From the NCBI GenBank assembly GCA_041651055.1, contig JBAZJW010000001.1:627521-691520 (forward strand): a DNA stretch of 64,000 nt. Reading direction: 5' to 3'. Source of the stretch: Minisyncoccota bacterium. Its GTDB lineage: Bacteria; Patescibacteriota; Minisyncoccia; Phycocordibacterales; UBA5272. A program made the position numbers and the translations under genes. Shown here piece after piece: positions 16,164 to 30,823 of this stretch. The notes below the pieces were generated by a model. The model searched no databases. It was not told the origin of the DNA and was given only the letters and a program-made list of their open reading frames with translations. Numbering within the stretch: position 1 is the first letter of the stretch; each line of letters starts with the position of its first letter.

Positions 16164-16169
16164 ACGTAT

Positions 16170-16478
16170 ATGGCCACAAAGAAAATCACAACAGAAGAAA
16201 AGAAGGTAGAAGCAAAGCAGATTTTTGCTCCTCGTATGACAGAGAAGGCTTCACGCCAATCATCTGCGAACGCGTATACGTTTGTCGTTGCAAAGGATGC
16301 AACCAAACACTCACTCTTGGCTGAAATCAAGAAGGATTACAAAGTTACTCCAGTGTCAATCAATATCACCAATATGCCTCGTAAGAATACGTTCATTCGT
16401 GGCAAGTTCGGAACGACAGCAGGAATTAAGAAGGCGATTGTCTTTCTTAAGAAAGGGGACTCAATCACACTTGCTTAA
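16170..16478 (+). CDS. rplW: 50S ribosomal protein L23
   Basis: Operon position; L23-like 102 aa. Confidence 0.85.
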   Translation: MATKKITTEEKKVEAKQIFAPRMTEKASRQSSANAYTFVVAKDATKHSLLAEIKKDYKVTPVSINITNMPRKNTFIRGKFGTTAGIKKAIVFLKKGDSITLA

Positions 16479-16496
16479 TCTTTTTACTACAGAGCT

Positions 16497-17333
16497 ATGA
16501 AAACCTACAAACCAACAACCCCATCACGACGTAAGATGTCAACGGTAACCTACCGTGGAGTTCTTACAACGAATGATCCATATAAGCCGCTTACAACAGG
16601 ATTCCGTCGTGGTTCAGGTCGTAACGCATTCGGACGTATCACGTCACAGCATCGTGGAGGAGGACACAAGCGTTCTTTCCGTGAAATCGATTTCGTGTAT
16701 GACAAGCTTGATATTCCTGCAAAGCTTCAAACTATTGAATACGATCCAAACCGTTCTGGTTTTATCGCGCTCGCGGCCTATGCTGATGGAGCAAAGCGTT
16801 ATGTTCTCGTTCCACAGTCAATGAAAGTTGGTGACAAGTTCATCGTTTCAGAAAAAGCGGACCTTGAAGTTGGTAATCGTACCATGCTCAAGAATATCGC
16901 CGTAGGTACTTTTATTTACAACCTCGAAGTAAAGCCACGTGCAGGAGCTAAGCTCGTACGTGGAGCAGGGACATACGCACAGGTGGTTGCACATGATAAT
17001 GGATACACATCGGTCAAACTTCCTTCAACAGAAGTTCGTAAAATTGTTGATATGTGTTTTGCTTCTATCGGTGAAGTTTCAAACGGCGAATATCGTCTTC
17101 GAAATATCGGTAAGGCAGGACGTTCACGTCACCTTGGTATTCGTCCAAAGACACGTGCTATGGCTAAGAACCCAGTAGACCACCCATACGGAGGAGGAGA
17201 AGGAGCTCAGCCACGAGGAACACGTCGTCCAAAGACAAAGCAAGGTAAGACTACTGGAGGACATAAGACACGATCACCGAAGAAGTACTCAAACGTACAC
17301 ATCGTCTCTCGTCGTGTTGTGCGAAAGAAGTAA
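16497..17333 (+). CDS. rplB: 50S ribosomal protein L2
   Basis: SQHRGGGHKR, PYGGGEG motifs. Confidence 0.95.
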   Translation: MKTYKPTTPSRRKMSTVTYRGVLTTNDPYKPLTTGFRRGSGRNAFGRITSQHRGGGHKRSFREIDFVYDKLDIPAKLQTIEYDPNRSGFIALAAYADGAKRYVLVPQSMKVGDKFIVSEKADLEVGNRTMLKNIAVGTFIYNLEVKPRAGAKLVRGAGTYAQVVAHDNGYTSVKLPSTEVRKIVDMCFASIGEVSNGEYRLRNIGKAGRSRHLGIRPKTRAMAKNPVDHPYGGGEGAQPRGTRRPKTKQGKTTGGHKTRSPKKYSNVHIVSRRVVRKK

Positions 17334-17396
17334 TAACTTCCAAAAAACGCTTTACTTTCAAGAAAAATCTGATATAATTAAACCCCATTAACCACC

Positions 17397-17741
17397 ATGA
17401 CACGATCACTACACAAAGGTCCATACGTCGACGAACGAGTACTCAAAAAAGTTCTCGGCAAGCGTCCTGAAACAACAGGCGTCATTAAGACATGGATTCG
17501 CCGATCGGATATCGCCCCTGAAATGGTAGGCTTCACCTTCGGTGTATACAATGGCAAGACTCATATCGAAGTTCTTGTCACTGAAGATATGGTTGGTCAC
17601 AAACTCGGCGAATTTTCTCCTACACGTAAGTTCGTTCGTCACGGAGGAAAGATGCAAAAGGAAATTGATCAGAAGAAGAAGGAATCTGAAATTACTGCTG
17701 CCAAGACTGCGAAGGCAACGACTGACACTAAGAAGAAATAA
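17397..17741 (+). CDS. rpsS: 30S ribosomal protein S19 with Lys-rich C-terminal tail
   Basis: [10 protein letters not shown]...[11 protein letters not shown]. Confidence 0.92.
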
Positions 17742-17746
17742 TCTGT

Positions 17747-18079
17747 ATGAAAGCATCCCTCAACAACTACCGCCAATCACCTCGTAAGGTCCGTCTCATC
17801 ACGGAACTCGTAAAAGGAAAGTCTGCCGACAAAGCACAGGCTATTCTTGCACACCTCATCAAGCGTGGAGCTCTTCCAATCAAGAAACTTCTTGATTCAG
17901 CAATTGCAAACGCAGGTGTTCCTGCTTCTGATCTTATGATTAAGACAGCGACCGTGGACAAGGGGGTAGTTATTAAGCGTTGGATGCCTAGAGCTATGGG
18001 ACGAGCATTTCCAATTCACAAGCACACAAGTAAGGTAGCTATCGAGCTTGTTAAGAAAACTGATATAGTAAAGAAATAA
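17747..18079 (+). CDS. rplV: 50S ribosomal protein L22
   Basis: Operon position; L22-like 110 aa. Confidence 0.85.
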   Translation: MKASLNNYRQSPRKVRLITELVKGKSADKAQAILAHLIKRGALPIKKLLDSAIANAGVPASDLMIKTATVDKGVVIKRWMPRAMGRAFPIHKHTSKVAIELVKKTDIVKK

Positions 18080-18080
18080 T

Positions 18081-18779
18081 ATGACACACGTAGTACACCC
18101 ATATGCACATAGACTTGGAATCATCCGCGACTGGAAGTCACGTTGGTTCGGCAAGAATCAGGCTCATTATGTAGACCATCTTCGCGCTGATGTTCTTGTT
18201 CGTGCATGGCTTACGAAGAAGCTTCGCGGTATGTATCTTTCACAGATCGAAATCGAACGAAGTGAAAAGCAGTATCGTATTATGATTTACACCTCACGCC
18301 CAGGTATGATTATCGGCCGTGGTGGAGACGGAATTGATAAACTTCGTGCCGCTCTCAAAAAAGAAATGGCTCGTCTTAAGATTATCGTTCCTCAGGATGT
18401 AAAGCTCGATATTATCGAAGTTGCAAACCCTGAAGCAGATGCTGCTATCGTGGCTGCCATGATTGCAGAAGGTATCGAAAAGCGTCTTCCTTTCCGTCGT
18501 GTTCTCAAAACAACAATCGAAAAGGTGATGGCCAATCGTGATGTACAAGGAGCTCGTATCGCCGTATCTGGTCGTCTCGGTGGAGCTGAAATGGCTCGCC
18601 GTGAGCAGATCAAGCGTGGAGGTATTCCTCTTCAGACGCTCCGTGCTGATATCGACTTCGCTCGTGAAAAAGCTCACATGACCTACGGTGTTGTCGGTAT
18701 TAAGGTATGGATATACCGTGGTATGAAGTTTGATCTACCAACTAGTAAGGTTGCTAAGAAAGAAGGAACCAATAATTAA
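18081..18779 (+). CDS. rpsC: 30S ribosomal protein S3
   Basis: KH domain and S3-C pattern (…GRLGGAEMAR…). Confidence 0.92.
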   Translation: MTHVVHPYAHRLGIIRDWKSRWFGKNQAHYVDHLRADVLVRAWLTKKLRGMYLSQIEIERSEKQYRIMIYTSRPGMIIGRGGDGIDKLRAALKKEMARLKIIVPQDVKLDIIEVANPEADAAIVAAMIAEGIEKRLPFRRVLKTTIEKVMANRDVQGARIAVSGRLGGAEMARREQIKRGGIPLQTLRADIDFAREKAHMTYGVVGIKVWIYRGMKFDLPTSKVAKKEGTNN

Positions 18780-18785
18780 AAACGT

Positions 18786-19205
18786 ATGTTATTCCCAAAG
18801 AAAGTAAAACACCGAAAGTGGCAAACAGCTCGTCTCTCAGAAGACAAGCTTAATCGTCCAGAAACACGCGGAGTAACCGTAGCGTTTGGTTCTTTTGGCC
18901 TTAAAGCTGAAACTCCTTCACGTATCGCCGCTAATCAAATTGAAGCTGCTCGTCGCGCAATGCAACGTCATGCCGGCAAGACTGCCAAGGTTTGGATTCG
19001 TATTTTCCCTGATCGTCCTGTTACACAGAAGGCAGCAGAAGTACCGATGGGTAAAGGAAAAGGAGATCCAGATCGATATGTATTCGAGGTTCGTCCAGGA
19101 CGAATTCTCTTTGAAGTGGACGGTATTCCAGAAGCACAGGCACGTGAAGCGCTTCGTAAAGCTGGATGTAAGCTTCCTGTTAAAACTCGCATTGTCACTC
19201 GTTAA
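18786..19205 (+). CDS. rplP: 50S ribosomal protein L16
   Basis: L16 pattern; operon position. Confidence 0.9.
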   Translation: MLFPKKVKHRKWQTARLSEDKLNRPETRGVTVAFGSFGLKAETPSRIAANQIEAARRAMQRHAGKTAKVWIRIFPDRPVTQKAAEVPMGKGKGDPDRYVFEVRPGRILFEVDGIPEAQAREALRKAGCKLPVKTRIVTR

Positions 19206-19211
19206 ATTTAT

Positions 19212-19460
19212 ATGAAAACAACACAAACAAGAAAGAAAATAACAGGGAAGGTCGTCTCAGATAAGATGGACAAGACTGTCGTCGTAAACACATCTCGTTA
19301 TGTCGCTCACAAGAAATACGGAAAGTATTTCAAGATCGACAAGAACTACAAAGCTCATGATGAAAATAATGAGTACAAGGTAGGGGATATGGTTATCATC
19401 GAAGAGTGTCGTCCACTTTCGAAGGATAAAAACTTCACCGTTCTTGGAAAGAAGGCATAG
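19212..19460 (+). CDS. rpsQ: 30S ribosomal protein S17 (immediately follows rplP; no L29 gene)
   Basis: ITGKVVSDKMDKTVVV...YKVGDMVIIEECRPLSKDKNF. Confidence 0.9.
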   Translation: MKTTQTRKKITGKVVSDKMDKTVVVNTSRYVAHKKYGKYFKIDKNYKAHDENNEYKVGDMVIIEECRPLSKDKNFTVLGKKA

Positions 19461-19496
19461 CGCATTTATTTACTACTAAGTTAATTACTAACCACC

Positions 19497-19877
19497 ATGA
19501 TACAAGCAGGCACAAACGTAATAATCACAGACAACTCCGGAGGAAAACGCGGGCGCGTGTTTAAGGTGCTTGGTGGAAGTAAGCGTCGCTATGCATCACT
19601 TGGTGATATGGTTGTGCTTTCTGTTAAGGTTGCTGAACCTCGAAAGCAGACTAAGAAGAAGGATATTGTATACGCGGTTGTCGTTCGTACAACAAAGCAG
19701 GTGCGTCGTGAAGATGGATCATACATTTCTTTTGATGATAATGCTGTTGTTATTGTGGACAAGGTAAAGAAGGAACCGAAAGCAGGACGCGTATTCGGTC
19801 CTATTCCTCGTGAACTTTCTCTCACGGGTATCGATGGTTACAAGAAAATTGCTTCACTTGCTCCAGAAATCATCTAA
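19497..19877 (+). CDS. rplN: 50S ribosomal protein L14
   Basis: MIQAGTNVIITDNSGGKRGRVFKVLGG... Confidence 0.95.
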   Translation: MIQAGTNVIITDNSGGKRGRVFKVLGGSKRRYASLGDMVVLSVKVAEPRKQTKKKDIVYAVVVRTTKQVRREDGSYISFDDNAVVIVDKVKKEPKAGRVFGPIPRELSLTGIDGYKKIASLAPEII

Positions 19878-19898
19878 TACAATTTTAATAAAAAATAT

Positions 19899-20174
19899 AT
19901 GCATCTAAAAAAAGGCGACAAAGTAATAGTGATTGCAGGAAAGGAGAAAGGAAAGTCTTCTGTAGTGACACAGGTTCTTCGTGAAGAAAACCGTGTTGTT
20001 TTGGAAGGTCTTAATATGATGAAGAAGCATATGAAGGCACCGAAGGCAGGGGAGAAAGGCGGTATCGTGAGTATTGCAATGCCGATTCATGCATCAAACG
20101 TAAAGCTTGCTGACAAAGACGCAAAGAAAGAAAAGCCAGCCGCAAAGGCAAAGAAAGCTGTTACAAAGAAGTAG
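19899..20174 (+). CDS. rplX: 50S ribosomal protein L24 with KA-rich C-terminal tail
   Basis: KKGDKVIVIAGKEKGK KOW motif; operon position. Confidence 0.9.
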   Translation: MHLKKGDKVIVIAGKEKGKSSVVTQVLREENRVVLEGLNMMKKHMKAPKAGEKGGIVSIAMPIHASNVKLADKDAKKEKPAAKAKKAVTKK

Positions 20175-20211
20175 TTAGGGGTTTGCAGTTAGGAGTTGGG
20201 AGTTGAAATAC

Positions 20212-20250
20212 AAAAGCGCGGTCTCTCGATCGCGCTTTTGTTTGCCCTTT
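20212..20250 (+). terminator. terminator hairpin; first copy of a ~40-nt direct repeat that flanks the inserted gene 20321-20974
   Basis: AAAAGCGCGgtctctcgatCGCGCTTTTGTTTGCCCTTT; compare 20978-21018. Confidence 0.6.
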
Positions 20251-20320
20251 ATGCTTGCAAAACAAGCTTCAGGTAGGTAGGATGTGATGGGTTCTTTATC
20301 ACACTGTCCTAGGAGGGCAT

Positions 20321-20974
20321 ATGAGCATTCTGAATGGCTTCACACCGCAGACAAGAATTGGTCGTGTTTATCAACCAGGATTTCAATTCGACAATCACCC
20401 TTTCTTCGTCAGGACTTTGGAGGAAAAGGATGGAAATCCTCAGTCACCCACTGTGAATTTTTTCAACGGGGAAGGTTGGGAGGAAATTTTTCGTGGCAGT
20501 CTTCCTGCGAAGGTTGTAACGCTTCTGCTTGAGTGTTCGGTCACAGAGCAAAAGCGTTATGAAAGCTACAAGAATAATCCGACAGGAGAATACCGGCCGT
20601 ACAGAGGGCATGGTCCGGCCATGCGGGCCATCTCCCTCCTTTTTATTGCTTTAGCATGCCTTCTTCTTGGGTTGATCGTCACAGCAGTTCTTCTTGGCTT
20701 CGGGCCATACAAATCAATCCTTGTTGGAGTGTTAACGCTTGCGCTTTTACTGTGGCTCCCCAGTGTTTACTTCCGTGTCACCTCAAAAATCCTCAACAAA
20801 AAATTTGCACAAATTTTCGTTGACTATATGAAGTGTGACAAGTCCTTAAGGGGTAAACAGGGGGAAGTTGTCGCCGTTTTGCGCAAGGTGGAACTTTTGT
20901 GTAAAAATCAAAAGAGAGCAAATCTTGCGACTGTTGTGGATGTGGAAAAAGAAATCCTTCGCCTTCTGAGGTGA
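20321..20974 (+). CDS. hypothetical membrane protein (two predicted TM helices); inserted between rplX and rplE
   Basis: 217-aa ORF. Hydrophobic stretches AISLLFIALACLLLGLIVTAVLLGF and ILVGVLTLALLLWLP. GC content visibly above the flanking r-protein genes. No similarity recognised. Confidence 0.55.
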   Translation: MSILNGFTPQTRIGRVYQPGFQFDNHPFFVRTLEEKDGNPQSPTVNFFNGEGWEEIFRGSLPAKVVTLLLECSVTEQKRYESYKNNPTGEYRPYRGHGPAMRAISLLFIALACLLLGLIVTAVLLGFGPYKSILVGVLTLALLLWLPSVYFRVTSKILNKKFAQIFVDYMKCDKSLRGKQGEVVAVLRKVELLCKNQKRANLATVVDVEKEILRLLR

Positions 20975-20977
20975 AGA

Positions 20978-21018
20978 AAGTGCGCGGTCGAGAGACCGCG
21001 CTTTTGTTTGCCCTTTGT
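20978..21018 (+). terminator. terminator hairpin; second copy of the flanking direct repeat
   Basis: GTGCGCGGTCgagaGACCGCGCTTTTGTTTGCCCTTTG. Confidence 0.6.
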
Positions 21019-21075
21019 TGCAGAAAAGAGTAGGATTATTGTGTCGTTCCGTTAGTTTTTTGTTTATTTCCCGAA

Positions 21076-21687
21076 ATGGGAGAAAGGTTGGTTGCAGTCA
21101 TGACTTTTATCCTACCGCCACAAAGCGACAGTGATTATCCAGTACGAATGCTCGGCGCCATTCAGTCGGCCTGCGACGCCATGTCAGACGGCAAGCAGAT
21201 TCTTTTCGAGAAGGATCTCTCTGACTACTTCACTGCGCAAGAGCTTTTCCACATGCTTTGGGATATGCAAAATAGGACTGAAGCTCCTCGCGGCGATGAT
21301 TGTCTGGCTCCTCCAGATCCTCTGTACCATAGGGCCCCTGTTCGGAAGGTTGTTGGGAAGGTTCTTCAAGGAGAATGTCCGCCTTCCTGTGAGAATGATG
21401 AGCAGCGCGCCGAATGGTTCATGGGTATTCTGAACTCCTGCGTTCTCTATGAAAAGTTTTGGACCCGGACAACCGCTTATGTCACAAGCATGAAGGAAAT
21501 CGACCTGGGTGTTGATATCGGGGGATACAGCCAACCGGTCACCGTTCTGTTCGACTCCGAGAAGACAGGCCAAAACGCTCGCCCCATCGCGGAGCGGGTG
21601 GTCAAAAAGCTTTTGGACGCGGTGACTGCTCACGTGGAGCAGTATTTGAGAGATGTGTACACCTACCCACAAAGTCCTGCGCCCTGA
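21076..21687 (+). CDS. hypothetical protein (higher GC; start may be the ATG at 21103)
   Basis: 203-aa ORF with CTG/GCG/CGG-rich codon usage unlike the neighbouring genes; no recognisable domain. Confidence 0.5.
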   Translation: MGERLVAVMTFILPPQSDSDYPVRMLGAIQSACDAMSDGKQILFEKDLSDYFTAQELFHMLWDMQNRTEAPRGDDCLAPPDPLYHRAPVRKVVGKVLQGECPPSCENDEQRAEWFMGILNSCVLYEKFWTRTTAYVTSMKEIDLGVDIGGYSQPVTVLFDSEKTGQNARPIAERVVKKLLDAVTAHVEQYLRDVYTYPQSPAP

Positions 21688-21861
21688 TTTCGGGCAGGCA
21701 TCAACAAGGCGACGTCTCACAGACGGCCGCCTTTTCATTTTGTCTTTTTTATGGTAGATTATGAGTCTATCAACTAACGCGGGAATATCCGCAAGCTAAG
21801 CAGCGTATAACGTTCCGACAGGTATATCCTCAAGAACCAATCGTACTTACAAACAAAGTAT

Positions 21862-22422
21862 ATGGCTAAAACAACAGCAATAAAAAGTATTAAAGAAGTA
21901 GAGAAGGAAGCATTCGAAACCCTTGCAAAGGAATTTGGATACAAGAACAAAATGGCTGCACCTCATCTTGTGAAGGTTACTATTTCTGTTGCGACAGGAT
22001 CAGCAATGAAGCGTGACAAGAAGTTCAATGATCTCGTTATGGATCGTCTTATGAAAATCACAGGACAGAAAGCGACTGTACGTAAAGCAAAGATGTCTGT
22101 GGCGTCATTTAAGACACGTGAAGGGGATCCAATCGGTGTCGCAGTAACACTTCGTGGTGCTCGTATGTTCGGATTCTTGGACAAGGTATTAAATGTATCA
22201 CTTCCACGTACAAAGGACTTCCGTGGTCTCAACCGTACATCGGTGGACGCTATTGGAAACATGACATTCGGTATCAAGGAACACACTATTTTCCCAGAAA
22301 TTCACGATGAAGAATTGAAGGATGTGTTCGGTATGGCTATTACAATGGGGACGACAGCTAAGACAAAAGAAGAGGCGACTAAGTTTTTCGAATTGATCGG
22401 CATCCCTTTCAAGAAACAATAA
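21862..22422 (+). CDS. rplE: 50S ribosomal protein L5
   Basis: ...GFKNKMAAPHLVKVTISV...DFRGL...GIKEHTIFPEI. Confidence 0.95.
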   Translation: MAKTTAIKSIKEVEKEAFETLAKEFGYKNKMAAPHLVKVTISVATGSAMKRDKKFNDLVMDRLMKITGQKATVRKAKMSVASFKTREGDPIGVAVTLRGARMFGFLDKVLNVSLPRTKDFRGLNRTSVDAIGNMTFGIKEHTIFPEIHDEELKDVFGMAITMGTTAKTKEEATKFFELIGIPFKKQ

Positions 22423-22423
22423 T

Positions 22424-22500
22424 TTACTTCATCTACTTCGTTGTAAAAGATTTTTTCTCCACGCAACGTACTATTCGTACGTCTTGGTCGAATTCTGACT
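22424..22500 (+). repeat. copy A of a ~90-nt hairpin repeat family (CTTCATCTACTTCGTTGT...CGTACTATTCGTACG...)
   Basis: Shares an exact 17-mer TTACTTCATCTACTT(C/T)GT and the core CGTACTAT-TGTACG with copy D inside the 23S gene; homologous to copies at 28588, 33602 and 59003. Confidence 0.7.
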
Positions 22501-22533
22501 TTTTAACAAGAAGTTCTAATAATCAGAATGAAC

Positions 22534-22570
22534 AAAAAGCATCACACGGTAGTGTGATGCTTTTTGTTTT
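22534..22570 (+). terminator. rho-independent terminator
   Basis: AAAAAGCATCACAC-GGTA-GTGTGATGCTTTTTGTTTT. Confidence 0.75.
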
Positions 22571-22634
22571 ACCCCTCCCATACTCTGGTTTAGGAGCTCT
22601 TGACAATCCATTCAAAATACTGTAGGGTTGGGGC

Positions 22635-24032
22635 ATGAAAACAGTAATTATCAAAGGCTTTGTAGCATTGGGGGTTTTGGGGATTATGGCTCAAACAGCA
22701 ACATCATCGTTTGCTGCGTATTTCAACACGGATTCAATTCCTCGTTGCGATGTTCAAATTATCAATACATTACAAGTTGGTTCTGAAAGTAAAGAGGTAT
22801 ACGTTCTTCAGTCGCTTCTTTCACGAGCAGGATACCTTTATGCAACACCAAATGGTTATTTTGGTTTTGCGACAAAGTCTGCCGTTAAAAGTTTCCAGCG
22901 AGACAACGGTGTATATGCCACCGGTTCTGTTGGTCCAATGACCTTAAATGCAATAAACGAGCGTCTTTGTGATGCTGATGTACGAGGAGACATGCTTTCA
23001 TACACTGGTTATGGATATTCTTCATACAACGGCTATTCATCAGGCGTTACGTACGTTGATGCTTTCGATCCATACGTTCGCGTCGTCTCTCCGACTCCTG
23101 CAGTCGCTACCGTATTCGGTAATCCTCCTACAACCACAACGCCTGGAACATTTACTCCTTCAGGAACGGTTCCGGTTTCTATTCCTGCACTCACAACAGG
23201 GACATATTCAAACACCACAAATTACTCAACAATTCCTGCTACCACAAATACACAGATTGCTAGTACGAATGTCATTTACAATCCTTCAGCTGGATACACC
23301 TACGGTATCGTTCCACAGTCTGGTGTATTGACTATTCTTACACCACTTGCAAACAGTGTTTACAATGAAGGTGACACTGTGACACTCTCATGGACAACAA
23401 GTAATCTTACGGTTACACAGTACCAGATTCTTCTTGAAAATAAATCAACAAATCAGTCAAAGGTTGTTGCTGTTACGTCGACAAAGAGCGCATCATTTGT
23501 TCTTACAAAAGAAGTTCTTGATGCCGTATGTTCTGGAGCGTGTGATAACAATAACGTCGGATCCTTCCGCATCGTTATTGCGACACCTATTGTTGATATA
23601 GCGGGAACTGTATCTACATTCCGTGCTGCTATTTCACCGATTACGATTAACCGTCCATATACGACATTTGCCAATGTAGGAATCACAGGAAGTAAAAACC
23701 CTGTTAATTCCGGAGAAGCTTTTAGACTCTATGTAAGTGTGCCAACACCTGTGTACAATTACACACCAAGTTACAATCAGTATTCATTCAAGATTCGTGC
23801 TGTATGCATCAACAATGTTCAGGTGAGTATTGCAGGTGTGCCATGTGGTCAGGATTTTACAATGCCTGTCACATCAGCATATTTCCAGCAAGAAATTCCT
23901 GTTATGATGACGAACACAACATGGTATCGTCAGAATATTTCCTTCGAAATTAATGCCTTCACTTCTACAGGGCAACTCGTAGGTACTGCAAGTACAACAG
24001 TAAGTGTTAACCCTGCACCATTTGCTTGGTAA
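22635..24032 (+). CDS. secreted protein with N-terminal PG-binding-like domain; inserted between rplE and rpsN
   Basis: Signal peptide MKTVIIKGFVALGVLGIMAQTATSSFA; C.VQIINTLQVGSESKEVYVLQSLLSRAGYLYATPNGYFGFATKSAVKSFQRDNGV...C. Confidence 0.75.
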   Translation: MKTVIIKGFVALGVLGIMAQTATSSFAAYFNTDSIPRCDVQIINTLQVGSESKEVYVLQSLLSRAGYLYATPNGYFGFATKSAVKSFQRDNGVYATGSVGPMTLNAINERLCDADVRGDMLSYTGYGYSSYNGYSSGVTYVDAFDPYVRVVSPTPAVATVFGNPPTTTTPGTFTPSGTVPVSIPALTTGTYSNTTNYSTIPATTNTQIASTNVIYNPSAGYTYGIVPQSGVLTILTPLANSVYNEGDTVTLSWTTSNLTVTQYQILLENKSTNQSKVVAVTSTKSASFVLTKEVLDAVCSGACDNNNVGSFRIVIATPIVDIAGTVSTFRAAISPITINRPYTTFANVGITGSKNPVNSGEAFRLYVSVPTPVYNYTPSYNQYSFKIRAVCINNVQVSIAGVPCGQDFTMPVTSAYFQQEIPVMMTNTTWYRQNISFEINAFTSTGQLVGTASTTVSVNPAPFAW

Positions 24033-24076
24033 GCGAATATAGACAAGAGGGGAGAGTGTAAAGGAGAGAGAAATAC

Positions 24077-24108
24077 AAAGAGCGGCCACTTCGTGTCCGC
24101 TCTTTGTA
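24077..24108 (+). terminator. rho-independent terminator
   Basis: AAAGAGCGGCCAC-TTCG-TGTCCGCTCTTTGTATTT. Confidence 0.7.
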
Positions 24109-24136
24109 TTTGTACCCGCTCTCTCCTCTTGACTCT

Positions 24137-24165
24137 TTGCTATAAACTGTATTTCATGGTAGTAT
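24137..24165 (+). promoter_or_regulatory. putative promoter TTGCTA-17-TAGTAT with TG extension (TGgTAGTAT) for the rpsN-rpsH-rplF-rplR-rpsE-rplO block
   Basis: Same extended -10 motif as the tuf and rRNA promoters. Confidence 0.4.
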
Positions 24166-24271
24166 TCTAGGGCTGTCCGTAATCCGTGTTTCTCCGTAAG
24201 TTTAGAGTGAAAGCTTTATATTTACGCACTCACGCGCGATATTCGGATAGTTTAATCAACAAACAAAGACA

Positions 24272-24457
24272 ATGGCAAAAACATCAACAATTGCACGTAG
24301 CAAGAAGACGCCAAAGTTCTCGTCACGAATAGTAAACCGATGCTTCAAATGTGGTCGAAAGCACGGATTCATGCGAGATTTCGGTCTATGCCGAACATGC
24401 TTCCGCGAGCTTGCGAACGAAGGTATGATTCCAGGTATTAAGAAATCGTCTTGGTAA
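24272..24457 (+). CDS. rpsN: 30S ribosomal protein S14, type Z (zinc-binding)
   Basis: 61 aa with CxxC...CxxC ([20 protein letters not shown]). Confidence 0.92.
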
Positions 24458-24464
24458 TAAACAT

Positions 24465-24848
24465 ATGGATCAAATAGCAAACATGCTCATCGCGATCAAA
24501 AACGGTGGCCTCGTAAAAAAGGCGACCGTTATCCTTCCTTCTTCAAAATTGAAGGTCGCGATTCTCGAGCTACTCAAAAAAGAAGAATATATCAAAACCT
24601 TTCATGTAACAGAAGGCGTCAAGCCGACTGTAGAGATTGTTCTTGCGTATAAGAAAGATGAACCTCGTATCACAGGAGTGGCACGAGTTTCAAAGCAGTC
24701 AAAGCGTATGTATACAGGTGTAAAAAAGATTACACCGTTTAAGTATGGACACGGTATGACAGTACTTTCGACTCCGAAAGGAATCTTAAGTGACAAAGAA
24801 GCCCGCAAAGAAATGGTCGGCGGCGAACTATTATTCACAATCTGGTAA
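24465..24848 (+). CDS. rpsH: 30S ribosomal protein S8
   Basis: MDQIANMLIAIKNG...; operon position. Confidence 0.92.
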   Translation: MDQIANMLIAIKNGGLVKKATVILPSSKLKVAILELLKKEEYIKTFHVTEGVKPTVEIVLAYKKDEPRITGVARVSKQSKRMYTGVKKITPFKYGHGMTVLSTPKGILSDKEARKEMVGGELLFTIW

Positions 24849-24855
24849 AAAACGT

Positions 24856-25389
24856 ATGAGCAGAATAGGAAAACAACAATTAAGTATTCCAGCAGGTGTC
24901 GAAGTTACCTTTGATGCCCATGCTGTACGTGTGAAGGGGCCACAAGGAGAACTTGTGCGTGATCTTCGTGACGAAGTCGCTTTCAAAAATGAAAACGGCA
25001 TCATTACGTCAGAGCCTCGTCGTAATGACAAGTTTTCACGATCTCTCTGGGGAACATACATGTCTCATGTGAAAAACATGATCACAGGTGTCGTTACTCC
25101 GTTTAGTAAAAAACTTCTTGTAGAAGGAGTGGGACTCAAGTGGGAAGTGAAAGGTCAAGACCTTGTGCTTAACCTTGGATTCTCTCACCAAATCATCAAG
25201 AAGATCCCAAGTAATGTAACGGTTGTTGCTGAAAAGAGCGCCCTTACTATTACAAGTATTGATAAAGAGGCAGTCGGACTCTTTGCGAATCAAATTCGTT
25301 CACTCAAGAAACCTGAACCATATAAGGGTAAGGGTATTCGTTATAGTGATGAAGTTGTTCGTCGAAAGCAGGGTAAGAAATCAGCATAA
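24856..25389 (+). CDS. rplF: 50S ribosomal protein L6
   Basis: MSRIGKQQLSIPAGVEV...; start chosen at the ATG at 24856, after the rpsH stop. Confidence 0.9.
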   Translation: MSRIGKQQLSIPAGVEVTFDAHAVRVKGPQGELVRDLRDEVAFKNENGIITSEPRRNDKFSRSLWGTYMSHVKNMITGVVTPFSKKLLVEGVGLKWEVKGQDLVLNLGFSHQIIKKIPSNVTVVAEKSALTITSIDKEAVGLFANQIRSLKKPEPYKGKGIRYSDEVVRRKQGKKSA

Positions 25390-25405
25390 TCTGTAAGATA
25401 CTTAT

Positions 25406-25756
25406 ATGAAAACAAACATCAAAACAGAAAAGCGAGTACGTCTTCACAAGAAGATTCGTTCTCGCGTGTCAGGGACAGCGGAACGTCCACGACTTGCTAT
25501 CTTTCGTTCAAACCGCTACATGTATGCGCAGCTTATTGACGATGTTCGTGGGATAACACTCGCGTCAGCATCTGATATTTCTTTGTCTGACAAAATGACA
25601 AAGGTGCAGCGTGCGAATACTGTCGGCAAGAAACTTGCTGAAGAAGCAAAGAAAAAAACTATTACTGCGGTCGTCTTTGATCGTGGCGGGTTCTCGTACC
25701 GTGGTCGAGTAGAGGCATTAGCAGATGGCGCACGCGAAGGTGGCCTTATGTTCTAA
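25406..25756 (+). CDS. rplR: 50S ribosomal protein L18
   Basis: [20 protein letters not shown]... Confidence 0.9.
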
Positions 25757-25769
25757 GCCAAATAACTAT

Positions 25770-26495
25770 ATGTCAGAAGAAATAATCACAACAGAAGAAG
25801 TAGTCGTGGCACCAGAAACTATAACAGAACCAGTCGTTACTCCTACATCTACCGAAACCGTAGCGACAGGAAACGTTGCTGTGGCACAAGACCGTGAGTC
25901 ACGACCAGTTCGTGGTGCTCGCGGTGGACAGTCACAAGGGCGCGGTGGTAAACCGGGAGGACGACCAGGAGCTAGACCTCGTGCTCCACGTGAGAAGCCA
26001 GAATTTGATAGTAAAACTATCAGTATTCGTCGCGTAACTCGTGTGGTTTCAGGTGGACGTCGTTTTACACTTTCAGTAGCGCTCGTTGCTGGAGATCATA
26101 ATGGACGTATTGGACTTGGAACAGGAAAGGCACTCGATACGCAAGTCGCTATCGAAAAGGCACTCAAGGCTGCAAAGAAGAACATGTTCACAATCAAGCT
26201 TTCAAAGACTAAATCACTTCCTCATGATATTGATGCGAAGTTCAAGTCTTCACAGGTGATGATTATGCCGAACAAAGGACGTGGACTCATCGCCGGATCA
26301 TCAGCTCGTACCATTTTGGCACTTGCGGGATTAAACGATGTAACTGCAAAGTTCTATTCAGGTACAAAGAACAAGCTTAACAATGCTCGTGCGACGATGG
26401 CTGCTCTACAGCAAATCGCGTACGCTCACGGTGAGGCTCCTGTTGCTGCTACAAAAATAGGGGGAGAGGAACCAGTGGTAACTCCAGTAAATTAA
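25770..26495 (+). CDS. rpsE: 30S ribosomal protein S5 with Thr/Glu/Val- and RGG-rich N-terminal extension
   Basis: RVTRVVSGGRRFTLSVALVAGDHNGRIGLGTGKA... S5 core; start at ATG 25770. Confidence 0.9.
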   Translation: MSEEIITTEEVVVAPETITEPVVTPTSTETVATGNVAVAQDRESRPVRGARGGQSQGRGGKPGGRPGARPRAPREKPEFDSKTISIRRVTRVVSGGRRFTLSVALVAGDHNGRIGLGTGKALDTQVAIEKALKAAKKNMFTIKLSKTKSLPHDIDAKFKSSQVMIMPNKGRGLIAGSSARTILALAGLNDVTAKFYSGTKNKLNNARATMAALQQIAYAHGEAPVAATKIGGEEPVVTPVN

Positions 26496-26505
26496 TTAAA
26501 CGACT

Positions 26506-27069
26506 ATGCAAATACATGAAATAAAACGCGTACACGCGAATAAGAAATCAAAGCTCGTCGGTCGTGGAGGAACACGTGGTAAGACTTCAGGTCACGGAGG
26601 AAAGGGACAGACTGCTCGTGCGGGACACCGTGTCCGCCCAGCTATGCGTGACATCATCAAGAAGCTTCCAAAGTTGCGTGGACATGGAAAGAACCGATCA
26701 GTTTCAGTATTCTACCGTGGCCCAGAAGCAGTGGTGAACGTCGGTGTGCTTAATGTCTTCAAAACAGGAGATGTGGTAACACCTACAGCACTTATTGCAA
26801 AAGGACTCATCGGTGAATCTTTTGGAAAGAATCCAAAGGTAAAGATTCTCGGAAATGGTGAACTTACTGTCGCTCTTTCATTCGAACGATGTGATGTTTC
26901 AAAGACAGCACAAGAGAAAATTGAAAAGGTGGGAGGAAAAGTAACTGTTGAAGTTAAACCAAAACCACAGTCAGATGAACAGTTGAAGAAAATTGCTGCC
27001 AAGAAAGCTGAAAAGCTTGCGAAGAAGGCAAGTAAGAAGGGAGGGAAGACTGCTCCTAAGAAGAAATAG
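26506..27069 (+). CDS. rplO: 50S ribosomal protein L15 with KA-rich C-terminal tail; follows rpsE directly (no L30)
   Basis: GRGGTRGKTSGHGGKGQTARAG pattern. Confidence 0.9.
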   Translation: MQIHEIKRVHANKKSKLVGRGGTRGKTSGHGGKGQTARAGHRVRPAMRDIIKKLPKLRGHGKNRSVSVFYRGPEAVVNVGVLNVFKTGDVVTPTALIAKGLIGESFGKNPKVKILGNGELTVALSFERCDVSKTAQEKIEKVGGKVTVEVKPKPQSDEQLKKIAAKKAEKLAKKASKKGGKTAPKKK

Positions 27070-27213
27070 TCAAAAAGTAATATTTTAGCGAATCACTTAG
27101 TTGTTACAGGATTTTTCTCAGTCGCTGCACTAAAATGTACGTCTTCTTCCAAAAATTCTTAGACTCCTTGTGTTTCATCTAAAATCTTCCTTTTTGCAAT
27201 ATAGAAATACAAC

Positions 27214-27250
27214 AAAAGAGCGGCCACGAAGTGGCCGCTCTTTTGTGTTT
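27214..27250 (+). terminator. rho-independent terminator between rplO and secY
   Basis: AAAAGAGCGGCCAC-GAA-GTGGCCGCTCTTTTGTGTTTT. Confidence 0.75.
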
Positions 27251-27269
27251 TGTGACAAGTCTTTATCTG

Positions 27270-27298
27270 TCGACCGGAGGCTGTTCCCGTGCTATAAT
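27270..27298 (+). promoter_or_regulatory. putative promoter TCGACC-17-TATAAT with TG extension (TGcTATAAT); the secY ATG lies ~10 nt downstream, so the transcript would be leaderless or nearly so
   Basis: TGCTATAATGG at 27290-27300; ATG at 27308. Confidence 0.45.
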
Positions 27299-27307
27299 GG
27301 TTCAATT

Positions 27308-28576
27308 ATGAAAACAATCAAGGCTATTTTCTCTGACCGTTCACTCCGAAACCGAATCTTTTTCGTTATCGGTATTCTTATTATTACTCGCATTCTTGCA
27401 GCTATTCCAATCCCAGGTATTGATGCATCGAACCTTGCTTCTTACCTTCAAAATCAAAACAGTAGTTTCCTTGGAATGCTAAACGTACTTTCAGGTGGAG
27501 GTATCGCTACACTTTCTATCGTGATGCTCGGTGTCGGTCCATACATTACCGCATCGATTATTATGCAGCTTATGACGGTGCTTTCTCCTCGCCTTAAGGA
27601 GATGTATCAAGAAGAAGGGGATGCGGGACGTCGTCGTTTCGTACAATACGGAAGACTTATCTCACTTCCTTTCGCAGTGCTTCAGGGGTTTGCTTTGATT
27701 ACGCTTCTTGTTCGTCAAAATGTCATTCCTGCACTTTCTATAGAAAGTATGACAACAAATATTATTATTGTGACGGCTGGAACCATGCTCATGATGTGGC
27801 TCGGTGAACAGATTAATGAAAAAGGTATTGGAAATGGAGTATCTCTTATCATTTTCGCAGGTATCGTTGCAGCTCTTCCAAAGAGTGTTGGACAATTTTT
27901 CCTTGCATTTGATGTTTCTCAAATTCCAATGCTTGTTGGACTTCTCGTGCTATCACTCGTTGTGATTGCTGGTATTGTGTATGTAACAGAAGCAGAACGA
28001 CCAGTTCCTGTAACCTATGCTCGCCAGTCACGTGTCGGTGGAGCAGCAACGCTTACGTCTTCTACATATCTGCCACTTCGCCTCAACCAGGCTGGTGTGG
28101 TTCCTATTATTTTCGCGGTTTCAATTCTTTTATTCCCACAATTAATTGGTCAGCTTTTTGCGACATCGTCTCAAGCATCTCTTCAGGCTTTTGCACGAAC
28201 AATGAATGGTCTTCTTACGAATCAGTGGATTTATGGAGGTCTCTATTTCTTCCTCGTTGTATCGTTTACCTACTTCTATACAGCGGTGATGTTTGATCCA
28301 GATCAGACAGCTGAGAATCTTCAGAAGAACGGCGCGTTCATTCCAGGATTCCGCCCAGGCTCTGCTACTGCTGAATACATTGGATATGTGCTTGCTCGTG
28401 TGACACTCTTTGGTGCAGTGTTCCTTGGTCTTATTGCAGTGCTTCCAGTTATTATTCAAGGGTTAACAGGGCTTACTGCTATACAAGTTGGAGGTACATC
28501 ACTTTTGATTGCGGTGTCAGTGGTGCTTGATTTGATTAAGAAAATCGACGCTCAACTCTCTATGCGCGAGTACTAA
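27308..28576 (+). CDS. secY: preprotein translocase subunit SecY
   Basis: 10 TM helices; IIPIIFA-like motif (AGVVPIIFAVSILLFPQ) and other SecY signatures; start at MKTIKAIFSD. Confidence 0.93.
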   Translation: MKTIKAIFSDRSLRNRIFFVIGILIITRILAAIPIPGIDASNLASYLQNQNSSFLGMLNVLSGGGIATLSIVMLGVGPYITASIIMQLMTVLSPRLKEMYQEEGDAGRRRFVQYGRLISLPFAVLQGFALITLLVRQNVIPALSIESMTTNIIIVTAGTMLMMWLGEQINEKGIGNGVSLIIFAGIVAALPKSVGQFFLAFDVSQIPMLVGLLVLSLVVIAGIVYVTEAERPVPVTYARQSRVGGAATLTSSTYLPLRLNQAGVVPIIFAVSILLFPQLIGQLFATSSQASLQAFARTMNGLLTNQWIYGGLYFFLVVSFTYFYTAVMFDPDQTAENLQKNGAFIPGFRPGSATAEYIGYVLARVTLFGAVFLGLIAVLPVIIQGLTGLTAIQVGGTSLLIAVSVVLDLIKKIDAQLSMREY

Positions 28577-28587
28577 CTAAGCTATTT

Positions 28588-28672
28588 GCGAACTGCTTTG
28601 TTACGGAGCCTCGCGTGCTCGTCACCGTACTAGTAAGTACGACTCCTCGCACGCACTCCGTGCCTCGCATTT
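28588..28672 (+). repeat. copy E of the ~90-nt hairpin repeat family
   Basis: CTTTGTTACGGAGCCTCGCGTGC...CCGTACTAGTAAGTACGAC...GCACGCACTCCGT: outer stem complementary but with a sequence different from copies B-D; conserved inner CGTAC..GTACG hairpin. Confidence 0.6.
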
Positions 28673-28700
28673 CATCAAATATCTTAGTTTAGTAATATAG

Positions 28701-28730
28701 CAAAACCGCCCTTTGGGCGGTTTTGCTTTC
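28701..28730 (+). terminator. rho-independent terminator
   Basis: AAAACCGCCC-TTT-GGGCGGTTTTGCTTTC. Confidence 0.7.
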
Positions 28731-28759
28731 ATTGGAAGAGGTGTATACTTAAGATTATT

Positions 28760-29290
28760 ATGGAACCAGAACCAAGACCGGCGCATCAAGAAAAATCAGT
28801 AAACAGATTAGAGCCAATGGAGGCGAAGAAGATAAGAGACGCAAGAAGTCGTATTTCCCATACTTATGAAACCGTTGGTTCATCTGAAGAAGATTTAGAA
28901 AAATTAACAACAGAAGAAAAGAATGTTTTTTATGAAGCAGAACTAACAGCTGCTCAAGCTGATTTAAAGTCACTCAAAGAATTTCAGGATTTCTACGTTA
29001 AAACACTTAACTATTTACCGGCAGATGATAAGAATTCTTTGCTGGCATTTGAAGAGAACCTAAAACACGGGTTATTAGATACACAAAGGAAGTGGATAGT
29101 TTCTTATCCGGAGGGAGATTTACAGGAAATGAAAGATGGTGTCGACGAAGAGATTGAGACTATTTGTAAAAACCCTTCTCAAATAAGAGCTCGTCTATTT
29201 GATAAAATAGAAGCGTATACATTTTCAGTTGATTCAATATCAAGAAGAATTGAAACGATAGAAGCTAGTCTAAAAGGTTTAAGAGGTTAA
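28760..29290 (+). CDS. hypothetical acidic protein inserted between secY and adk
   Basis: 176-aa ORF, helical/charged composition; no domain recognised. Confidence 0.5.
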   Translation: MEPEPRPAHQEKSVNRLEPMEAKKIRDARSRISHTYETVGSSEEDLEKLTTEEKNVFYEAELTAAQADLKSLKEFQDFYVKTLNYLPADDKNSLLAFEENLKHGLLDTQRKWIVSYPEGDLQEMKDGVDEEIETICKNPSQIRARLFDKIEAYTFSVDSISRRIETIEASLKGLRG

Positions 29291-29306
29291 TAAAGTAATT
29301 TCATAA

Positions 29307-29338
29307 CAAAAGCCGCCCCGTACGGGGCGGCTTTTTCT
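29307..29338 (+). terminator. rho-independent terminator
   Basis: AAAAGCCGCCCCG-TAC-GGGGCGGCTTTTTCTT. Confidence 0.75.
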
Positions 29339-29353
29339 TAATTTTGTGATAAG

Positions 29354-29977
29354 ATGGACAAACATATGGAAAAAAAGTTTTACATCATCATGGGGAGGTC
29401 AGGTGGAGGGAAAGGGACTCAGGCAGAACTTCTTAAGACTTACTTGGAAAGTAAGGGTGCTGAGAATGTTCTTCATGTGACCACAGGGGGAGCTTTTCGT
29501 GAATTTATTAAAGGGGAAGGTTTTGTTTCTAAACAAGCCAGAGAAGTTAATAATGCAGGAGGTCTTCAGCCGGAATTTTTGGCGATCTGGAATTGGACTA
29601 ATATTTTTATTAATTCCGTACAAGAAAACACGACAGTGATTTTGGATGGAGCCCCTCGAAAAGTAATTGAGATGAATGCCATGCATGCGGTTATTCCATT
29701 CTTAGGATATAGTAAGCCAATAGTTATCTATATTGAAGTTGGACGTGCATGGGCAAAAGATAGATTGAATTATCGTCAAGCGCAAAGTGAAGAAAAGCGC
29801 GCCGACACAAGTTCAGACGAGGAAATTGAAAAAAGACTCTCTCTCTTTGATGAAGATATTATTCCTTGTATAGAAAAGTTTGTTGAAGATCCTCGTTATA
29901 CGTACATTCATGTAAACGGTGAGCAAACAGTGGAAGAAGTACAAGCTGAACTGGTTGCAAAATTAAACCTTGCATAA
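29354..29977 (+). CDS. adk: adenylate kinase (divergent)
   Basis: P-loop GRSGGGKGTQAELL and DGAPR motif aligned to Adk GAPGAGKGTQA / DGFPR; spc-operon position. Confidence 0.7.
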   Translation: MDKHMEKKFYIIMGRSGGGKGTQAELLKTYLESKGAENVLHVTTGGAFREFIKGEGFVSKQAREVNNAGGLQPEFLAIWNWTNIFINSVQENTTVILDGAPRKVIEMNAMHAVIPFLGYSKPIVIYIEVGRAWAKDRLNYRQAQSEEKRADTSSDEEIEKRLSLFDEDIIPCIEKFVEDPRYTYIHVNGEQTVEEVQAELVAKLNLA

Positions 29978-29994
29978 GTGTGTAGTAAAAAAAT

Positions 29995-30762: not shown

Positions 30763-30792
30763 GAGATAGTAGTTAGGAGTTAGGGGGGATAT

Positions 30793-30823
30793 AAAGAGCG
30801 GCGCCCATAGCGCCGCTCTTTAT
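30793..30823 (+). terminator. rho-independent terminator
   Basis: AAAGAGCGGCGCC-CATA-GCGCCGCTCTTTATG. Confidence 0.7.

Follow-up and report, generated by a model that had tools for sequence, protein, structure and literature searches.

A PG_binding_1-domain gene and a conserved structured rpsN leader between rplE and rpsN in a Minisyncoccota genome

The S10-spc-alpha cluster is one of the most conserved gene orders in bacteria, and it is found also in the Minisyncoccota genome that is described here (contig JBAZJW010000001.1, positions 627,521 to 691,520 of the forward strand). This stretch of 64,000 nucleotides (nt), called the window in the following, has a GC content of 42.6% and carries the cluster in the order fusA, tuf, S10-L3-L4-L23-L2-S19-L22-S3-L16-S17-L14-L24, rplE, rpsN, rpsH, L6, L18, S5, L15, secY, adk, map, as is typical of a candidate phyla radiation genome. 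The analysis concerns the interval between rplE and rpsN, in which a gene for a protein of 465 amino acids (aa) with a peptidoglycan-binding domain of the PG_binding_1 type is located, here termed PGB465. This gene has a promoter and a terminator-like hairpin of its own, and the ribosomal protein genes that follow start again with a promoter and a conserved structured leader. The features of the junction, in positions of the window, are:

21752-21760, plus strand: extended -10 promoter element TGgTAGATT of the rplE unit, read from the sequence
21790-21854, plus strand: conserved structured 5' leader of rplE, based on a covariance model and pair counts
21862-22422, plus strand: rplE (ribosomal protein L5), 186 aa, Pfam Ribosomal_L5 and Ribosomal_L5_C
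22424-22530, plus strand: 3'-truncated copy of a repeated long-hairpin element, directly after the rplE stop codon
22531-22568, plus strand: intrinsic-terminator-like hairpin (A-tract, GC stem, U-tract) at the end of the rplE unit, based on an inverted repeat and folding
22600-22628, plus strand: sigma-70-type promoter of PGB465 (TTGACA at 22600-22605, 17 nt, TAGGGT at 22623-22628)
22635-24032, plus strand: PGB465, open reading frame (ORF) of 465 aa, PG_binding_1
24073-24108, plus strand: terminator-like hairpin at the end of the PGB465 unit, based on folding, a recurring core and relatives
24157-24165, plus strand: extended -10 promoter TGgTAGTAT of the rpsN-rpsH-... unit, conserved as TGnTAnnnT
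24171-24252, plus strand: conserved structured 5' leader of rpsN, 82 nt, based on covariation and conserved in 33 genomes
24272-24457, plus strand: rpsN (S14, 61-aa zinc-ribbon type), Pfam Ribosomal_S14
24465-24848, plus strand: rpsH, Pfam Ribosomal_S8; it comes second in the unit and encodes S8, which is proposed as the effector of the rpsN leader

The junction and its transcription signals

A preliminary description of this DNA had named, in this order, rplE, a repeat, a terminator, a 465-aa peptidoglycan-binding protein, a second terminator, a TGnTAGTAT promoter and rpsN, and all of these are indeed present where it had placed them or close by, the rpsN promoter lying just past position 24110 at which that description ended. 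It had also regarded the spc operon as split, and this holds, in that the units look separate and that their promoters and terminators are conserved across relatives. For the comparison, 80 species-level genomes were used that are closest by L5 and carry the labels Paceibacterota, Parcubacteria or Nomurabacteria, with their neighbouring genes mapped; the compared genomes or contigs are denoted as loci (L001 and so on). In the synteny counts, close relatives are those with an L5 that is at least 78% identical and with both rplE and rpsN on the locus (n = 22), while the more distant Paceibacteria of the set have L5 proteins of 52-67% identity.

The -10 element of the PGB465 promoter ends only 6 nt before the ATG at 22635. 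In 29 of 31 orthologs, this promoter is kept as TTGACA (one TTGACT), a spacer of exactly 17 nt, and TAGGGT, TAGGAT or TATAAT, with 6-10 nt to the ATG, and this short distance implies that the PGB465 mRNA is probably leaderless or nearly so. The hairpin that follows the gene is predicted to fold with -25.7 kcal/mol (z = -7.2) and is nested in a 107-nt hairpin (24033-24139, -55.5 kcal/mol), and the one after rplE is a 17-bp perfect inverted repeat, for which a hairpin of 18 bp with -26.5 kcal/mol (z = -9.2) is predicted, followed by a U-run; both window hairpins carry U-tracts. In the relatives, terminator-like hairpins are found 3' of rplE in 20 of 38 cases and 3' of the PGB465 ortholog in 21 of 29 cases, as compared to 0 of 60 coding control windows. 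The conservation of promoters and terminators across the relatives indicates that these signals are more than chance, and with a promoter and a terminator of its own, PGB465 appears to form an independent transcription unit. In front of the rpsN leader, a TGnTAnnnT element is present in 30 of 33 cases, mostly ending 5-7 nt before the first leader position, and as this extended -10 element is placed directly ahead of the leader, the RNA would begin at the leader. The rplE unit has a comparable element, and related TAGTAGAGT / TGGTAGAGT elements are found 5' of the rplE leader in relatives.

It has to be considered that the hairpins may be leaky. In this case, PGB465 would functionally belong to the ribosomal protein super-operon, read-through would couple an abundant envelope protein to the growth rate, and the internal promoters would only add to it. 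The gene is indeed on the same strand and tightly linked to rpsN even where rplE has moved away, as in L023, in which rplE is located 2.7 kb downstream of rplF and the PGB465 ortholog is still directly upstream of rpsN; the strict terminator test is passed only in the 20 of 38 and 21 of 29 relatives mentioned above, and the small-gap relatives L078 and L079 lack a terminator after rplE. However, nearly all orthologs have the perfect TTGACA-17-TAGGGT type of promoter 6-10 nt before the ATG, both window hairpins are very stable (about -26 kcal/mol) and have U-tracts, and in 11 of 22 close relatives a minus-strand gene for a DUF2177 membrane protein (134-151 aa) is located between the PGB465 ortholog and rpsN, which argues against one obligatory transcript. 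A coupling by read-through is therefore regarded as improbable.

No Shine-Dalgarno-like sequence has been found upstream of any of 35 window genes, which agrees with the loss of the anti-Shine-Dalgarno motif that has been reported for about half of the Parcubacteria (PMC9297842). Elements resembling a -10 box are located 6-25 nt from the ATG of PGB465, secY, the large PG-binding proteins and orf176, and this suggests that leaderless or short-leader mRNAs may be widespread in the genome to which the window belongs. As another recurring feature, a nearly identical terminator core of 31 nt occurs at three unit boundaries (11115-11145, 24077-24107 and 27213-27243). It has the form AAAGAGCGGCCAC-TTCG-GTGnCCGCTCTTT, there are relatives with the same AAAGAGCG...CGCTCTTT form, and its recurrence suggests either a clade-typical terminator design or local copying.

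The long-hairpin element directly after the rplE stop codon belongs to a family with five copies in the window (22424-22530, 27070-27200, 33594-33715, which is a fuller copy, 34778-34846 on the minus strand, and 52725-52801). The members are about 125 nt long, start 0-15 nt past a stop codon, are always in the orientation of the upstream gene and are usually followed by a terminator. The copy after rplE is 90% identical over 51 nt to 33616-33665 and has lost its 3' half. Orthologous copies are present 3' of rplE in 8 relatives (L001, L004, L005, L006, L010, L012, L024, L027), and other copies are located 3' of the PGB465 ortholog (L008:8051-8142, L016:10026-10134), 3' of rplX (L029:5715-5840), and also after rplO. 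In an alignment of 16 copies (A5), 13 of 21 pairs are compensatory, and the element forms a long hairpin with an invariant GUAC-loop-GUAC tip. It could be a stabilizer or a processing site in the 3' untranslated region (UTR), or an element resembling miniature inverted-repeat transposable elements.

Ancestry and architecture of PGB465

The PGB465 ortholog is located between rplE and rpsN in 22 of 22 close relatives, where it encodes proteins of 441-496 aa with 45-63% identity, and at nine further loci it is found downstream of rplE before the sequence ends. In an independent look-up, a 52%-identical family member showed the same gene order on three metagenome contigs. The ratio of nonsynonymous to synonymous substitution rates (dN/dS) in close pairs is 0.05-0.21, and the gene is thus under purifying selection. 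Its dS is 0.9-2.7 times that of the adjacent rplE. Among the four closest pairs, three have the higher dS in PGB465, as would be expected with a stronger codon bias in rplE. With a GC content of 0.40-0.44, the gene does not differ from the window (0.426). Direct repeats flanking PGB465 do not exceed chance level, no integrase or transposase has been found at the locus, and searches of GenBank phages and IMG/VR with the protein gave zero relatives. In terms of genes, repeats, composition and distribution, PGB465 therefore has none of the marks of a mobile or horizontally acquired island.

These data bear directly on the view that PGB465 is a recent, independent acquisition that came by horizontal transfer or with a mobile element to a terminator-associated hotspot. 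The preliminary description had considered the gene an independent insertion and had named its ancestral presence in relatives as the observation that would speak against this; the comparative synteny has now revealed exactly such a presence for the clade (22 of 22), together with low dN/dS and typical GC. Some observations would fit a recent insertion: the interval varies across genomes and differs by an indel even at strain level, the repeated hairpin element is found at several operon junctions (after rplE, after rplO, after the PGB465 ortholog in L008 and L016, and after rplX in L029), and the terminator core occurs three times in the window. On the other hand, all 22 close relatives have the ortholog in the same slot, 29 of 31 have kept the promoter, its dS is 0.9-2.7 times that of rplE at low dN/dS, in GC content it does not depart from the mean of the window, and flanking direct repeats, an integrase or transposase, and phage or viral relatives are all lacking. 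The recent-insertion view is thus largely refuted, and hardly any weight can be given to it.

The interval itself is far from static. In 48 genomes, it was found to be as short as 87 nt and as long as more than 5 kb, and apart from the PGB465 and DUF2177 genes, its ORFs are nearly all singletons. In the more distant Paceibacteria, 87 nt to 3.6 kb separate rplE and rpsN, with unrelated genes or none. A strain-level example is the pair L081 and L082, in which a segment of 1314 nt (L082:5808-7121) takes the place of 37 nt (L081:5806-5842) just upstream of the rpsN -10 element; it carries an ORF for a 391-aa P-loop protein and its own terminator, the shared flanks are 99.1-99.8% identical, and the PGB465 ortholog is identical in both. 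A homolog of this P-loop ORF is found at the same place in L025. The interval between rplE and rpsN is thus a real hotspot of gene gain and loss. With respect to the preferred insertion mechanism at operon terminators that had been proposed, the preferred site is supported by the gap variability and by the strain-level indel, but nothing speaks for a targeting of terminators, as no recombinase, repeat or target motif pointing to a terminator-directed insertion has been found. In L056, the gap is only 156 nt long and free of cargo, and yet the promoter and the rpsN leader are present, and even more distant genomes with gaps of 87-118 nt have an internal TTGACA/TAGTAT promoter with a different short leader. 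As the promoter is present in cargo-free gaps, the internal promoter was probably there before the cargo, which would make the interval a transcriptionally insulated and thereby permissive site. The split is thus better explained by a pre-existing autonomous regulation than by a mechanism that targets terminators.

As to the encoded protein, the PG_binding_1 domain (PF01471) is recognized with E = 3.4e-15 and 56.4 bits, as compared to a gathering cut-off of 23, and the match covers residues 52-107 over profile positions 2-57 of 57. The predicted layout is a signal peptide (aa 1-27), the PG_binding_1 domain (aa 52-107), a disordered linker rich in Thr, Pro, Ser and Tyr (aa 121-203), and two beta-sandwich domains of the immunoglobulin-like (Ig-like) type (aa ~205-340 and ~345-465). 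The N-terminal segment MKTVIIKGFVALGVLGIMAQTATSSFA|AYF resembles a signal peptide, with a basic n-region that is followed by a hydrophobic core and by the cleavage motif AxA; around the cleavage site, A27 shows no variation among 56 homologs, and Y29 and F30 are conserved to 90% or more. In the family alignment of these 56 sequences, which has a mean column identity of 56%, a variable low-complexity linker is followed by a well-conserved C-terminal part of 260 residues. The PG_binding_1 domain is bracketed by the invariant cysteines C38 and C112, and there are two more invariant cysteine pairs in the C-terminal part; such pairs would be expected in a protein outside of the cytoplasm. In the AlphaFold model, the PG-binding domain and the two beta-sandwiches are predicted with confidence, with residues 1-34 and most of 121-203 disordered, and in this model the PG-binding domain is predicted to adopt a three-helix fold that can be superposed on solved PG-binding domains. 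The remainder of the model matches only Ig-like, FN3, pilin and invasin folds, and beyond PG_binding_1, Pfam gave only weak matches to the Ig-like folds of SusE and Kre9. A search of 1.84 billion representative proteins for the C-terminal module gave only 38 clusters, almost all of which have the architecture of PGB465, and by this measure the module is lineage-restricted.

Several homologs have been named "peptidoglycan hydrolase-like protein" by the Joint Genome Institute, and on this basis PGB465 might be a peptidoglycan hydrolase that attacks the walls of host or prey cells. However, no catalytic domain of the amidase, muramidase, transglycosylase or peptidase type is recognized in PGB465 by Pfam at E up to 0.01, what remains of the model are two beta-sandwiches that match pilins, invasins and FN3 modules, and beyond the cysteines and structural Gly/Pro no residues of a catalytic type are conspicuously conserved. 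A hydrolase is therefore very unlikely. PGB465 also differs in this respect from PG_binding_1 proteins such as the spore cortex-lytic enzyme SleB with its N-terminal PG_binding_1 domain, in that it has no catalytic domain, and in that its PG-binding domain is bracketed by two invariant cysteines and followed by the lineage-restricted Ig-like pair. Judged by its architecture, PGB465 would be a secreted, wall-anchored, non-catalytic surface protein that binds peptidoglycan, and this points to a possible function in the envelope or in adhesion. Genes for proteins with PG-binding and Ig-like domains have been found to be among the most highly expressed ones of unknown function in cultured Paceibacteria, and a role in attachment has been proposed (PMC10936435). 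These proteins of archaea-parasitising Paceibacteria (Kuroda et al. 2024, PMC10936435) are of the same class and share with PGB465 the signal sequence, the PG-binding domain and the Ig-like folds; high expression has been reported for them, and PGB465 has a strong consensus promoter. The comparison is one of architecture, and the host-attachment role is an inference of that study.

The window encodes four other PG_binding_1 proteins (1191, 1017, 1153 and 404 aa), all in the fusA-tuf interval (688-13023), together with a small sigma-70 region 4 protein. The three large ones all begin with MKKYIL and have C-terminal PG-binding modules that are 68-77% identical, and the first two have N-termini of 70% identity. 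A paralogy of PGB465 with these four proteins was considered and rejected, as the similarity is confined to the PG_binding_1 stretch (55-114 residues, 36-47% identity). The kinship with the other insertion of a PG-binding type that had been assumed in the preliminary description thus comes down to this stretch, and the rest of the proteins is unrelated.

Structured leaders of rpsN and rplE

The rpsN leader is a conserved RNA structure. In an alignment of 29 sequences (A2, made with MAFFT), 16 of 22 pairs are compensatory, and 91.5% of the cells are paired, as compared to 23-50% with slid partners; the observed value was not reached in any of 500 shuffles. The covariance model R1 gave 33 plus-strand matches in 915 kb, one per genome, all of them directly upstream of rpsN. 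The leader includes a conserved P3 stem (CGUAAG/UUUACG) and a conserved UUUCUC loop. The gene for S8, rpsH, comes second in the unit: wherever the sequence of a locus includes it, it is located after rpsN, starting 8 nt past rpsN in the window, and the encoded S8 has the C-terminal ...VLSTPKG... motif.

Between two covarying helices, the leader has an internal loop of 5'-UAAUC (24180-24184) opposite 5'-GAUAUU (24238-24243), which together with its flanks reads 5'-G-UAAUC-3' opposite 5'-G-AUAUU-C-3'. The S8 site in helix 21 of 16S rRNA is known to consist of a bulged nucleotide 595 that forms a triple with the pair 596-644, of G597-C643 with U641, and of U598 opposite A640, with A642 invariant and flipped out, and the bulged 595 is a G in Thermus (PMC4176348). 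The loop of the leader can be mapped one-to-one onto this site, with U at 595, A-U at 596-644, A-U at 597-643, U at 598, A, U and A at 640-642, and C-G at 599-639. The elements of the helix 21 architecture are thus matched: a bulge of one nucleotide, two Watson-Crick pairs, a 1x3 loop with U598 opposite A640, U641 and A642, and the C599-G639 pair. U598, A640, U641 and A642 are kept, with G597-C643 being replaced by A-U in all 29 sequences. Columns 13, 93 and 95 of A2 are invariant, and column 94 is U except for a C in L052; L055, which is outside A2, also has a C. The 596-644 pair has changed from A-U to G-C in L052, L054 and L055.

In E. coli, S8 is the classical repressor of the spc genes, and its operator, which has been found only in Gammaproteobacteria, overlaps the rplE start (PMC3616713). 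The loop architecture, the position of the S8 gene in the regulated unit and the E. coli precedent together make the rpsN leader a candidate S8 autoregulatory RNA. It would have in common with the E. coli operator the regulated genes (rpsN, rpsH, rplF and so on), the S8 gene in the unit, and the helix 21 architecture. The differences are just as clear: the E. coli operator lies over the rplE start codon, whereas the rpsN leader is located wholly in the 5' UTR upstream of rpsN and has a dedicated promoter; it has A-U at 597-643, U at 595, the extra P3 stem and the UUUCUC loop; and it occurs in Paceibacteria, whereas the E. coli RNA is from Gammaproteobacteria (PMC3616713), without sequence homology or an Rfam match. 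As the position differs and there is no match in Rfam or in sequence, the leader, if it is functional, would be an independent invention and not a member of the E. coli operator family.

A natural RNA with the same core has been found in a metagenome scan for 16S rRNAs with UAAUC/GAUAUU in helix 21. Most of the 80 loci examined were non-rRNA noise, nearly without exception, and L110 and L115 are weak-scoring small-subunit (SSU) rRNA genes. L105:5230-5450 on the minus strand is a true SSU rRNA in which UAAUC/GAUAUU aligns to 595-599/639-644 of the Rfam model. The contig is mitochondrial (cox2, nad1, nad11), and the finding shows only that nature tolerates this core at the S8 site and nothing about the 16S rRNA of Paceibacteria.

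It is quite conceivable that the leader is real and that its ligand is something other than S8, namely S14, L6, L18, S5, L15, L5 or a non-protein signal, in which case the likeness to helix 21 would be coincidental. The leader has retained neither G597-C643 nor A595 of the E. coli site, the key loop positions are invariant, so that covariation cannot confirm the non-canonical geometry, the sole loop pair with covariation (A-U to G-C) is found in just three genomes that form one related group, and the rplE leader has the YAAUC half-motif in common with the rpsN leader and not the GAUAUU half. For S8 speak that the whole architecture of helix 21 is matched, including the bulge, the two pairs and the 1x3 loop U/AUA, that S8 is the classical regulator of the same genes in E. 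coli (PMC3616713), and that a natural SSU rRNA, which is mitochondrial, has exactly this core at its S8 site.

The upstream regions of rpsN in more distant Paceibacteria (L059, L062-L065, L069, L073 and L078) lack the helix 21-like leader and have a TTGACA-17-TAGTAT promoter instead. After this promoter, a short hairpin with a U-run (AGCUU-loop-AAGCUUUUUU) is found immediately before the rpsN ATG, which may be a different leader or an attenuator.

The leader of rplE has an outer stem AAGCxxCG/CGUxCUU, an internal loop UAUAAC / YAAU and a variable hairpin, and in sequence it takes the form AAGCGACG-UAUAAC...YAAU-CGUGCUU. This structure was drawn by hand and then tested by pair counting and with a covariance model; RNAalifold on a MAFFT alignment of the leader predicted zero pairs. 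By pair counting, 87.7-90.9% of the cells are paired, as compared to 23-48% with slid partners, and the covariance model R2 gave one match per locus in 46 loci, always directly 5' of rplE. A function of this leader as an S8 site was considered and rejected, as the YAAUC strand fits the S8 core and the opposite strand UAUAAC does not, and no effector is proposed. A search of the 23S and 5S rRNA of the window itself for sites that the two leaders might mimic gave only short chance matches; one of these, TATAACG at 53319, belongs to what we take to be a conserved stretch of 23S rRNA near helix 69, which is not the L5 site.

A sister group (L038, L040, L041, L043) has a solitary rplE, as the mapping revealed no further gene for a ribosomal protein on these loci of 9-12.5 kb. 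L039, L044 and L045 are likewise grouped with these lone-rplE loci, and the rplE leader is retained there.

Neither leader and none of the copies of the repeat element is matched by any of the 4227 families of Rfam 15. The region 11000-31000 was scanned at E up to 1, the region 21690-24290 at E up to 10, and the whole window with gathering thresholds; for both leaders and the repeat element, these scans returned only hairpin noise. The known leaders of ribosomal protein genes (Rfam; Eckert and Weinberg 2020, PMC7247131) are likewise structured 5' UTRs upstream of a ribosomal protein gene, clade-restricted and covarying, and in the parts of that 2020 catalogue of new leaders that were reached by a term search, no leader of S14, S8 or L5 turned up. 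The two ribosomal leaders thus appear to be undescribed so far, and one of them would have the anatomy of an S8 operator.

Two further junctions of the cluster have been inspected. Between rplX and rplE (20321-21687), there are two ORFs of 217 and 203 aa without a Pfam match, with a GC content of up to 0.50 over orf203. This gap is 128 nt to 5.3 kb long in the close relatives and 12-140 nt in most of the more distant Paceibacteria, and the split between rplX and rplE therefore looks younger than that between rplE and rpsN. The junction of rplO and secY (27070-27320) is split in a similar way, with a copy of the hairpin element, then a strong hairpin of the terminator type (27213-27243, -29.7 kcal/mol) and finally a promoter with TGcTATAAT, and secY most likely starts with the ATG at 27309 (MKTIKAIFSDR...) and not with the GTG at 27170 that is given in the ORF list. 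Outside of the cluster, in the rRNA region (50734-55444), the 23S rRNA spans 4243 nt, as compared to a model of 2925 nt, and thus contains insertions of about 1.3 kb. Between the genes for 23S and 5S rRNA, there is a tRNA match of 103 nt that may include an intron, and there is no linked 16S gene.

The spc operon as a set of autonomous units

The best overall explanation, to which we assign a probability of about 0.65, is that the spc operon has been cut into autonomous units in this clade, with an insulated gap in which PGB465 is an old resident, and with an rpsN leader of the S8 type. In this scheme, the spc operon would no longer be one operon. The rplE unit would have its own extended -10 promoter, a structured leader of roughly 95 nt and a terminator, and the rpsN-rpsH-rplF-... 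unit would restart at the conserved TGnTAGTAT promoter with its 82-nt structured leader. The gap that separates these units, from the terminator of rplE to the promoter of rpsN, would be transcriptionally insulated, so that genes inserted there leave the stoichiometry of the ribosomal proteins undisturbed. It probably exists because the clade broke the operon into autonomous units, and it would have collected variable cargo across the Paceibacteria, with PGB465 having been fixed long ago in the subclade of the window. PGB465 would be transcribed from its own consensus promoter as a leaderless mRNA, which fits a genome without Shine-Dalgarno sequences, and the protein would be attached to peptidoglycan via its N-terminal PG_binding_1 domain and would expose its Ig-like pair by way of a flexible linker. 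When in excess, S8 would bind to the helix 21-like loop of the rpsN leader and thereby lower the expression of its own unit.

Several observations weigh against this explanation. The divergence of PGB465 correlates only weakly with that of the ribosomal proteins (Mantel rho 0.24, a value reached by 46 of 2000 permutations), some homologous replacement among relatives is therefore possible, and a strict co-phylogeny is not claimed. In L006 and L009, the 4-6 kb downstream of rplE contain neither rpsN nor a match to PGB465, and in L019 the match there is weak and partial (38%), again without rpsN. The strict terminator criterion applies to only 20 of 38 (rplE) and 21 of 29 (PGB465) relatives. As to the leader, its distance to the rpsN ATG is anywhere between 14 and 144 nt, a variation that speaks against repression by simple occlusion, and the A-U at 597-643 and the U at 595 differ from E. 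coli with G-C and A595, the difference at 595 being softened by natural variation (G in Thermus, PMC4176348). The scan of the window revealed no 16S rRNA gene with which the leader could be compared.

A more far-reaching reading joins all of these aspects, and it is put forward only tentatively. According to it, the operon has been dismantled into self-regulated modules with two undescribed leaders, a mimic of helix 21 would have been invented a second time and independently in the rpsN leader, the gap would capture genes, PGB465 would be a major wall-anchored surface protein of bacteria with an episymbiont-like life, and the element at the stop codons would be a new kind of 3'-UTR or mobile RNA.

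For the evolution of operons, the scheme of autonomous units would describe a route of erosion in the candidate phyla radiation, in which internal promoters and autoregulatory leaders come first and the junctions are then safe for unrelated genes. If the rpsN leader is indeed a mimic of helix 21, its different position and its occurrence in a distant phylum would make it a clean case of convergent evolution of regulatory RNA. In the annotation of metagenome-assembled genomes, non-ribosomal genes inside the ribosomal cluster of this clade should not be taken for assembly errors. To our knowledge, almost nothing is known about the surface biology of candidate phyla radiation organisms, and as a clade-specific protein with a consensus promoter that is encoded beside ribosomal protein genes, PGB465 may be a good candidate for an abundant envelope or attachment protein.

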